Below are positions 40,258 to 41,986 of a DNA stretch of 41,986 nt, in pieces. The position numbers and the translations under genes are program-made. This DNA comes from Cirrosporium novae-zelandiae (lineage: Eukaryota), in the NCBI GenBank assembly GCA_026023565.1, contig JAPETS010000019.1, positions 558,001 to 599,986 of the forward strand. Direction: 5' to 3'. Under the pieces are notes generated by a model. The model was not told the origin of the DNA. It worked only from the letters and a program-made list of their open reading frames with translations, and did not search any database. Position 1 is the stretch's first letter, and every line of letters begins with the position of its first letter.

Positions 40258-41862
40258 ATGGCTATTACTGACCTCCTCATTTACGTCGGCCACAACTGGG
40301 CTATCTTCACAGCCTTACTCTTCACAGCTCACATCCTGCACACCCGATATCAAAAAGGCCTGCACAAAATTCCTGGTCCACGGTTAAGATCAATCTCGCC
40401 TCTTCCGCGCATATGGTCTGTCTACAAAGGCAACTCCCACAACGACGACCTAGACTTACATAAAAAGTACGGCAAGGTAGTGCGTATAGCTCCCAACACT
40501 ATTTCGATATCAGATACTTCTGAGATCGATCACATCTACGGCATCACAACCAAGTTCTACAAGTCCCGGTTCTACGACCCCGTCCGCTTCTATGATGACG
40601 AGGGCCTCATTCCTGACCCCTTCGTCTTGACGAATAAAGAGATGCACTCCCGCATGAAGCGCAATGCTGCGAACGCGTATTCGTTAAATGCACTGGTGCC
40701 GCTGGAACCGCTTGTAGATACCGTCATCGAGAGATTGATTCAGGTTCTAGACGCCGATTATGCCGATAAAGAGCGGGCTTGTAACTTGGGGCAGTACATG
40801 CATTTTTATGCTATGGATACTATTTTTGCCATCACGTTTGGAAAGGACTTGCAGTTTATTGAGAACGGGGACAGGGAGTCGATGCTCGCGAATTTACAGT
40901 CTGGCCTGAGATATATGGCTGTGGTAAATCTGAAACTCACTGCTTTCCCCATCATCCTCTTAGCAATTAAAACAATCGCAGAAAACCCGAAATGCTAACA
41001 CTTCACTTCCCCCTAGGCTGGCCAAATCCCTTGGATCCACAAGTTCCTCCTGGGCAACAAACTAACATCCTATCTCGTCTCTGGTAGCAACAGCAGCGAA
41101 ACGTTTATAGATGAAATGCTCCAACTCGCCACCACCAAAACCGCTGCCGCAATACAAAACCTCAAACCTCTTCCCCCCAACACCCCTCACACATTCCTCC
41201 ATCACCTCCTCCTCAACCAAAAATCCCACCCCCAGACTCTCACCACTCGCGAAATAACCACCCACACTTTTGGAAATATCCTCGCGGGCTCTGACACTAC
41301 CTCCATCGCCCTAAGCTCTATCCTCACAAACCTACTTCAAAACCCACACACCTACAAAAGACTCTGTATGGAGCTCCGAAATCCAGAGACGGAGAAAGAA
41401 TTGGGATTCCCAGTGGCATTTGGTCCGGCTTCGAAGTTGATTTATCTCAATGCTGTTATTAAGGAGGCCTTACGTATTCATCCATCTGTAGGCCTTATCC
41501 TTCCGCGGACGGTGCCCACGTCGGGAGCTAGTATTTGTGATAGATACCATGTGCCCGCTGGCACGGAAGTCGGAATAAATCCCTGGATTGTCCATCGAGA
41601 TCCAGAAATCTTTCCGGATCCCGACACTTTTAAGCCGGAGCGTTGGATCAGCAACACCAACAGTAACAACAGTAGCTCCCCATCATCTTTGGAGGTGGAG
41701 GGGAACGGGCGGGAGAAGAGAGGAGGAAAGGAAGGGAAACAGGGCCTAGAATCCATGAATCGAGCCGTTTTCGCCTTCGGGGCCGGTGCACACACATGTT
41801 CTGGAAAGCATGTCAGCTTTTTGGAAATGGTCAAGTTGGTACCGAGTCTTCTGCAGAAGTTT
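40258..41862 (+). CDS. Cytochrome P450, 3'-truncated by the telomere (no stop codon); 2 exons
   Basis: Exon 40258-40923, intron 40924-41016, exon from 41017; N-terminal anchor and IPGP, AGSDTT (I helix), EALR (ExxR), PERW, FGAGAHTCSG (haem Cys at 41797-41799), then LEMVKLVPSLLQKF runs directly into TTA GGG codons. Confidence 0.9.
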
Positions 41863-41986
41863 TTAGGGTTAGGGTTAGGGTTAGGGTTAGGGTTAGGGTT
41901 AGGGTTAGGGTTAGGGTTAGGGTTAGGGTTAGGGTTAGGGTTAGGGTTAGGGTTAGGGTTAGGGTTAGGGTTAGGGTTAGGGTTAG
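41863..41986 (+). repeat. Telomere repeat (TTAGGG)20 + TTAG, right chromosome end
   Basis: Perfect TTAGGG array to the end of the window, G-rich strand oriented 5'->3' towards the terminus. Confidence 0.98.

Follow-up and report, generated by a model that had tools for sequence, protein, structure and literature searches.

The window analysed here, a stretch of 41,986 nucleotides which forms the last part of contig C40 in the 31.4-Mb, 128-contig assembly of Cirrosporium novae-zelandiae, closes with perfect telomere repeats joined directly to non-telomeric DNA, namely the second exon of a P450 gene. The reading frame of this gene, distributed over two exons, runs for 504 codons free of stops and then passes in frame into (TTAGGG)n, the repeats starting 21 codons past the haem-ligating cysteine. 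An earlier sequence-only reading of this DNA had described just such an in-frame fusion behind 504 intact codons, and both statements are borne out by the sequence. The features at the end of the window and the nearest genes upstream are as follows:

35936-37619, minus strand: MFS transporter, in two frames (Pfam)
38650-39573, minus strand: frame for a PhyH-family dioxygenase (Pfam), divergent to the P450 gene and possibly part of the same small cluster
40258-40923, plus strand: P450 exon 1, 222 codons from the ATG; Pfam p450 match 13-179 of 462; identical to protein record P0003
40924-41016, plus strand: P450 intron, 93 nt, GT..AG, with a branch-site-like hexamer near 40994; the spliced form equals P0003
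41017-41862, plus strand: P450 exon 2, 282 codons; I-helix AGSDTT, ExxR, PERW and haem motif; last residues K-F, about 32 residues short
41797-41799, plus strand: haem-ligating Cys codon, from the sequence and the homologue alignment
41860-41864, plus strand: five-T junction, the Phe codon plus the first two repeat letters; probable one-base seed at T 41862
41863-41986, plus strand: telomere array, perfect, reading (Leu-Gly)n in the P450 frame; its shown length is set by the assembly

The encoded protein belongs by descent to the P450 family (PF00067), with the I-helix, ExxR, PERF/W and haem motifs all present, and its spliced form aligns with homologues gap-free across the intron. The protein record P0003 from Cirrosporium novae-zelandiae, to which it is 100% identical, carries the label 'partial'. 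A search of solved structures placed its family near CYP3A4 and gave nothing more. A low-complexity insertion of about 25 residues (window 41650-41745) lies between the PERW and haem motifs and is longer than in 16 aligned homologues.

Tail lengths were taken from those 115 of 119 listed homologues that have a recognizable haem motif. Their median is 53 residues after the haem cysteine and their minimum 38, with none at 25 or fewer, as against 21 in the window, which agrees with the earlier statement that P450s normally extend several dozen residues beyond this point. As none of the 115 homologues is this short, and as the Pfam p450 match ends at position 432 of 462, the truncation is not a matter of chance. 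What the gene has lost amounts to about 32 residues plus its stop codon and 3' UTR, so that, measured against an intact enzyme, the C-terminal segment after helix L and the stop codon are absent. This segment forms the terminal strands of P450s. Without them a P450 would hardly form a stable enzyme, and the gene is probably a young pseudogene that would have lost its function.

Further upstream, the window contains a gene for a PD-(D/E)XK_12 nuclease (34275-35787), a related copy of which lies near the telomere of another contig, C88 (L052:7764-9270). AAA ATPase frames occur near the ends of C41 and C78, and together with the PD-(D/E)XK_12 copies they are possibly remnants of mobile elements. 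Window positions 22665-32673 hold a HET-domain gene of 970 codons placed head to head with a large gene for an NFX1/ZNFX1-like zinc-finger helicase.

The exon-telomere junction

The array at 41863-41986 comprises 20.7 perfect TTAGGG copies over 124 bp, read as Leu-Gly in the P450 frame. Because homologues have F or Y at Cys+21 (113/115) and D or E at Cys+22 (92/115), the five Ts at the junction are probably, on the simplest reading of the alignment, three from the gene and two from the repeat. The sequence-only reading was right in noting a run of five Ts, but that the run is shared by gene and repeat is unproven.

The fusion of the P450 exon to telomere repeats is real. A contig of 8,798 nt from a public sequencing run covers window positions 37000-41874 with zero differences, gaps or loose ends, at a mean depth of 403.6, which is one flat figure for a whole contig of a kind that drops rare variants. 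It runs unbranched through the junction and on over two repeat units, and it stops 15 letters beyond 41874, apparently the point at which, in a 31-letter graph, this end would collapse with other telomeres. No other public run contains the region, and the assembly may itself derive from this one, so the agreement is not independent; two graph sizes give the same C40 junction. The P450 DNA of the window occurs once in the genome, as do the 28 bases before the junction even when 3 mismatches are allowed, which means that there is no overlapping alternative contig. Of the 16 telomere arrays in the assembly 15 measure 122-127 bp, and a model of graph merging at k=127 predicts the length exactly at 14 of the 16; these lengths reflect an assembler cap; hence the real telomere, and any Leu-Gly run, is longer than shown.

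The 3' end of the gene was not found in the assembly other than as the tails of P450 paralogues (C118 and, weakly, C13), in keeping in this respect with the view of the earlier reading that it is missing. A full homologue searched against the genome for an orphan tail returned only the paralogues' own tails, and a single homologue tail gave one candidate, which lies beside the C118 paralogue and serves as a positive control. A profile of 52 tails, run on the 16 ends and seven paralogue loci, recovered paralogue tails only and gave no match within the terminal 9.8 kb of the 15 ends besides C40, and tblastn of homologue tails against the 16 ends produced noise only (best E 0.057 among the matches listed). 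Whole-genome coverage thus comes from single-protein queries, the profile being limited to the ends and paralogue loci; tail queries of about 32 residues are weak and the one assembly is possibly incomplete, so that absence of the tail is moderately well supported. Loss of the DNA distal to the C40 junction is supported at the level of the assembly, as distinct from the raw reads.

Telomere ends of the genome and a telomerase RNA candidate

All 16 telomere arrays in the assembly lie at contig ends and face outward, and its 277 four-repeat matches equal the sum expected from these terminal arrays; at none of the 16 is there chromosomal DNA on both sides. Every array is perfect and abruptly joined to other DNA, and abruptness therefore does not single out C40. 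The earlier reading had correctly noted that the C40 junction is free of variant repeats, but this is not distinctive, since all 16 ends are alike. Nor is C40 unusual in the genome, for a second gene, encoding a GH1 beta-glucosidase, is cut in the same way:

L050:9240-9743 (right end of C81): N-terminal part of a secreted-type GH1 beta-glucosidase, 168 codons, then (Gly-Leu)n in frame

The 239 homologues of this protein are mostly about 620 residues long, and a motif that it shares with 95 of 120 homologues is followed by a median of 457 residues in the 79 full-length ones. When a full GH1 homologue was compared with the genome, the C81 match (61%) was limited to residues 14-172 and the six other matches reached just 32-43%; the catalytic domain of the C81 gene is accordingly absent from the assembly.

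Further cuts are seen in an AT-rich element common to the ends of C115, C56, C72, C78 and C79 (L054, L045, L046, L048, L049), which is interrupted by telomeres at nested points, and in the end of C37, where the telomere cuts inside sequence that is uncut at C32. The uncut sister copy overlaps the repeat by GG at C115, TAG at C37 and TT at C72; at C56 the divergence from the sister copies sets in three bases short of the junction. The GH1 cut on C81 and the nested cuts in the AT-rich element, taken with the P450 cut, indicate that healing recurs in this lineage. There is no excess of gene-cutting ends: 2 of 16 is below the random-cutting expectation (P 0.017), a crude proxy based on the roughly 40% of the terminal 9.8 kb that lies in frames of at least 170 codons.

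Several other frames lie near telomeres. Long frames for a DUF3112 protein, a HET protein, an aldo-keto reductase and a Zn-cluster factor (C73, C37, C115 and C32, respectively L047, L041, L054 and L040) end 130-406 bp from the repeats, and the frames touching the C54 and C79 junctions have no Pfam match. At the C41 end an acidic frame of 86 codons (L042:9441-9698, minus strand) reads away from the telomere and is possibly a gene without its 5' end; we rejected it as a third cut gene, as its look is chromo-shadow-like with no Pfam match and an Atlas lead of only 0.78.

A T precedes the array at all nine ends that start in TTAGGG phase (P 1.5e-4 to 3.3e-4). This suggested an additional A just 3' of the template in the telomerase RNA, and the RNA was sought on that account. 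A candidate (L060, C48:274861-276554) shows pseudoknot and P6/6.1 matches to the family model RF02462, at C48:276147 (38.4 bits against a cut-off of 30) and C48:276495 (28 bits). Its putative template of 1.5 repeats, at C48:274861, lies 1,286 nt upstream of the first of these matches, and the 4.2-kb locus has no other forward CCCTAA; the template is identified from its location and motif and falls outside the Rfam alignment, and folding of the template region was uninformative (z 0.48).

DNA complementary to the 3' template flank of this candidate reads AATAT before TTAGGG. The nine ends match the flank over 5, 5, 4, 3, 2, 1, 1, 1 and 1 bases, a total of 23, whereas cut points drawn locally at random give a null mean of 4.5-5.6 (P about 1e-5), and the flank 5-mer ranks first of 768; the statistic refers to these 9 of the 16 ends, the other 7, which start in other phases, being unscored. 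With the three AT-element ends dropped the total is 12 against 2.9-3.8 (P 5e-4 to 9e-4). At C72 the letters that match the flank are native, which favours pairing over copying at this end. The junction signature across the ends is well supported and points to telomerase. Among ends in GGG phase a T precedes 3 of 4 (C54, C81 and C88, respectively L044, L050 and L052), as if pairing skipped one base.

TERT is present in the genome. Loss of Pif1 as a cause of frequent healing was rejected at the domain level, a Pif1 domain being present in an open frame of 593 codons.

Probable healing within the P450 exon, its alternatives and its age

Repair by telomere healing within genes is known, as in Plasmodium, and distal loss by a break or erosion followed by telomerase capping inside the P450 exon is with high probability the explanation of the C40 end. 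The deep unbranched contig, the single-copy flank, the lack of an orphan tail and the RNA match across ends all strengthen this proposal, in which the earlier account of mid-exon capping with loss of the distal arm is upheld. A break or terminal erosion would have stripped all DNA distal to the Phe codon of a subterminal P450 gene, and telomerase would then have capped the exposed end directly, its 3' T most likely pairing with the A just 3' of the RNA template before synthesis of TTAGGG. That telomerase made the C40 join in particular, and did so from a one-base seed, is an inference. This junction matches the RNA flank by a single base only, and a search for a second isolate, in which an uncut allele might be seen, found none; a single T is the likeliest seed because homologues have F/Y and then D/E at the junction. 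The TG-type seed of the earlier reading accordingly gives way to a single T that most likely pairs just 3' of the template.

It is highly improbable that the junction is an artefact of the assembly or library, or a minor allele, with the real chromosome continuing into a normal P450 end. The data do come from a single sample with a protein record labelled MAG, from a short-read graph assembly, and from a sole holding run that is possibly its source; however, two graph sizes share the junction, the deep contig is unbranched, both a second overlapping contig and an orphan tail are absent from the assembly, and the C40 join follows the same T rule as eight other TTAGGG-phase ends. We likewise regard as very unlikely the capture of an existing telomere from another T-run end (e.g. 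C84 or C73) by microhomology-mediated break-induced replication, without telomerase at the break. Three Ts precede the array at C40, C73 and C84 alike, and repair of the capture type has been reported at Pyricularia ends (PMC8381367), but no donor subtelomeric DNA has been copied at C40, and the RNA-flank match of the junctions together with overlaps of 2-3 bases at uncut copies is what telomerase addition predicts.

An array longer than the assembler can span could in principle conceal a chromosome fission or an interstitial tract, with the remainder of the gene beyond the repeats or at another end. This is hardly credible, given that all arrays are terminal and outward, that the four-repeat matches are fully accounted for, and that the tail profile is empty at the other ends. 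A tolerated or even useful fusion, from which a stable P450 or P450-(Leu-Gly)n protein is still made, would accord with the intact frame and with conserved columns kept as well as in homologues, and both cut genes fall in the Gly-Leu frame, which is open through the repeats at C40 and C81. Nevertheless, chance alone would put both genes in this one frame in 1 of 9 cases and leave both stop-less in 4 of 9; a recent cut accounts equally well for the intact frame, no motif-bearing homologue is as short, and the stop codon and terminator are absent, all of which makes such a fusion extremely unlikely.

The healed exon also bears on age. The C40 P450 misses 15 of 152 conserved columns, with 11 of 26 homologues missing as many or more, and the C81 GH1 protein misses 7 of 66, a level reached by 14 of 84 homologues; neither gene thus has a clear excess of changes at conserved columns, and dating by decay yields an upper bound only. 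The intact P450 frame of 1,512 nt bounds neutral change at 0.02-0.07 substitutions per site. The C40 cut would thus be recent in evolutionary terms, a bound compatible with either an event in culture or a fixed trait; the 'recent' break of the earlier reading holds in the sense of lying under 0.02-0.07 neutral substitutions per site, but nothing finer is supported.

Cells normally clear stop-less mRNA through non-stop decay and ribosome quality control, and any run-through RNA from the C40 P450 would be expected to meet non-stop decay. Two AATAAA hexamers lie in the span of the gene, so that the RNA may also be cleaved early. A TERRA-like P450-UUAGGG chimeric transcript or a Leu-Gly protein is a prediction from the reading frame. 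We consider it unlikely that the widest proposal would hold in full, namely that every end was healed de novo, that its seed was chosen or written by up to 5 RNA bases 3' of the template, and that the two stop-less (Gly-Leu)n fusions are transcribed and translated. If it were true, C40 and C81, with ordinary promoters and AUG starts (one of them in a secreted-type protein), would be a natural non-RAN source of telomeric dipeptide protein.

Relation to known systems and significance

The comparisons that follow rest on those parts of the cited sources that were available to us. In Plasmodium falciparum 3D7, telomere healing inside var/rif coding regions has produced pseudogenes at 4 of 28 ends (PMC5550746). 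The Cirrosporium cuts resemble these in the fusion of repeats into coding DNA, the resulting pseudogene and the distal loss (2 of 16 ends here); they differ in affecting single-copy metabolic genes, in a filamentous fungus, and in that no intact subtelomere type is left among the 16 ends for contrast. In Pyricularia (Magnaporthe) oryzae, nested terminal truncation with de novo telomeres is described (PMC8381367), and in the blast fungus a new telomere was extended from a single T seed (bioRxiv 10.1101/845669). TTAGGG repeats, nested truncations, poorly conserved junctions and a single T seed are common to these reports and the present genome. The Pyricularia accounts, in the parts consulted, deal with MoTeR transposon ends and the eviction of whole genes such as AVR-Pita, and they report neither an in-frame exon-telomere fusion, as found here, nor a comparison of junctions with the 3' flank of the RNA template.

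In Neurospora the template-pseudoknot core of the telomerase RNA spans nucleotides 225-1515, and in Pezizomycotina RNAs a longer alignment region leads to higher processivity in vitro (PMC3592445). The C48 candidate is similar in that its putative template lies a long way upstream of the pseudoknot and P6/6.1 domains (PMC3592445, RF02462), and the natural junctions go beyond that study in suggesting pairing or copying of up to 5 bases 3' of the repeat-complementary region. In a fission yeast assay repair proceeds mainly by de novo telomere addition (PMC6733473), a reaction also shown for human telomerase (bioRxiv 10.1101/2022.10.31.514589). In mammals, Gly-Leu and Val-Arg repeat proteins derived from TERRA have been proposed to arise through repeat-associated non-AUG translation (PMC9992779); the same Gly-Leu repeat would come from UUAGGG RNA here, but the predicted fusion would be AUG-started and would stand behind the promoter of a gene.

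Our partial coverage of the literature returned no fungal in-frame exon-telomere fusion. The same partial coverage, with few subscription papers, returned no comparison of junctions with the 3' flank of the template; older healing studies in yeast and human reportedly compared junctions with the template itself.

In this free-living fungus telomere healing deletes metabolic genes at chromosome tips, and two cut genes have been caught. The ends of a single genome seem to preserve a record of the telomerase RNA bases, some of them beyond the template, that pair with broken DNA ends. The signature of junctions against the RNA flank could help in locating templates and is testable across many fungal assemblies, while C40 and C81 offer natural tests of whether a promoter-driven exon-telomere RNA may escape non-stop decay and yield a Gly-Leu protein.
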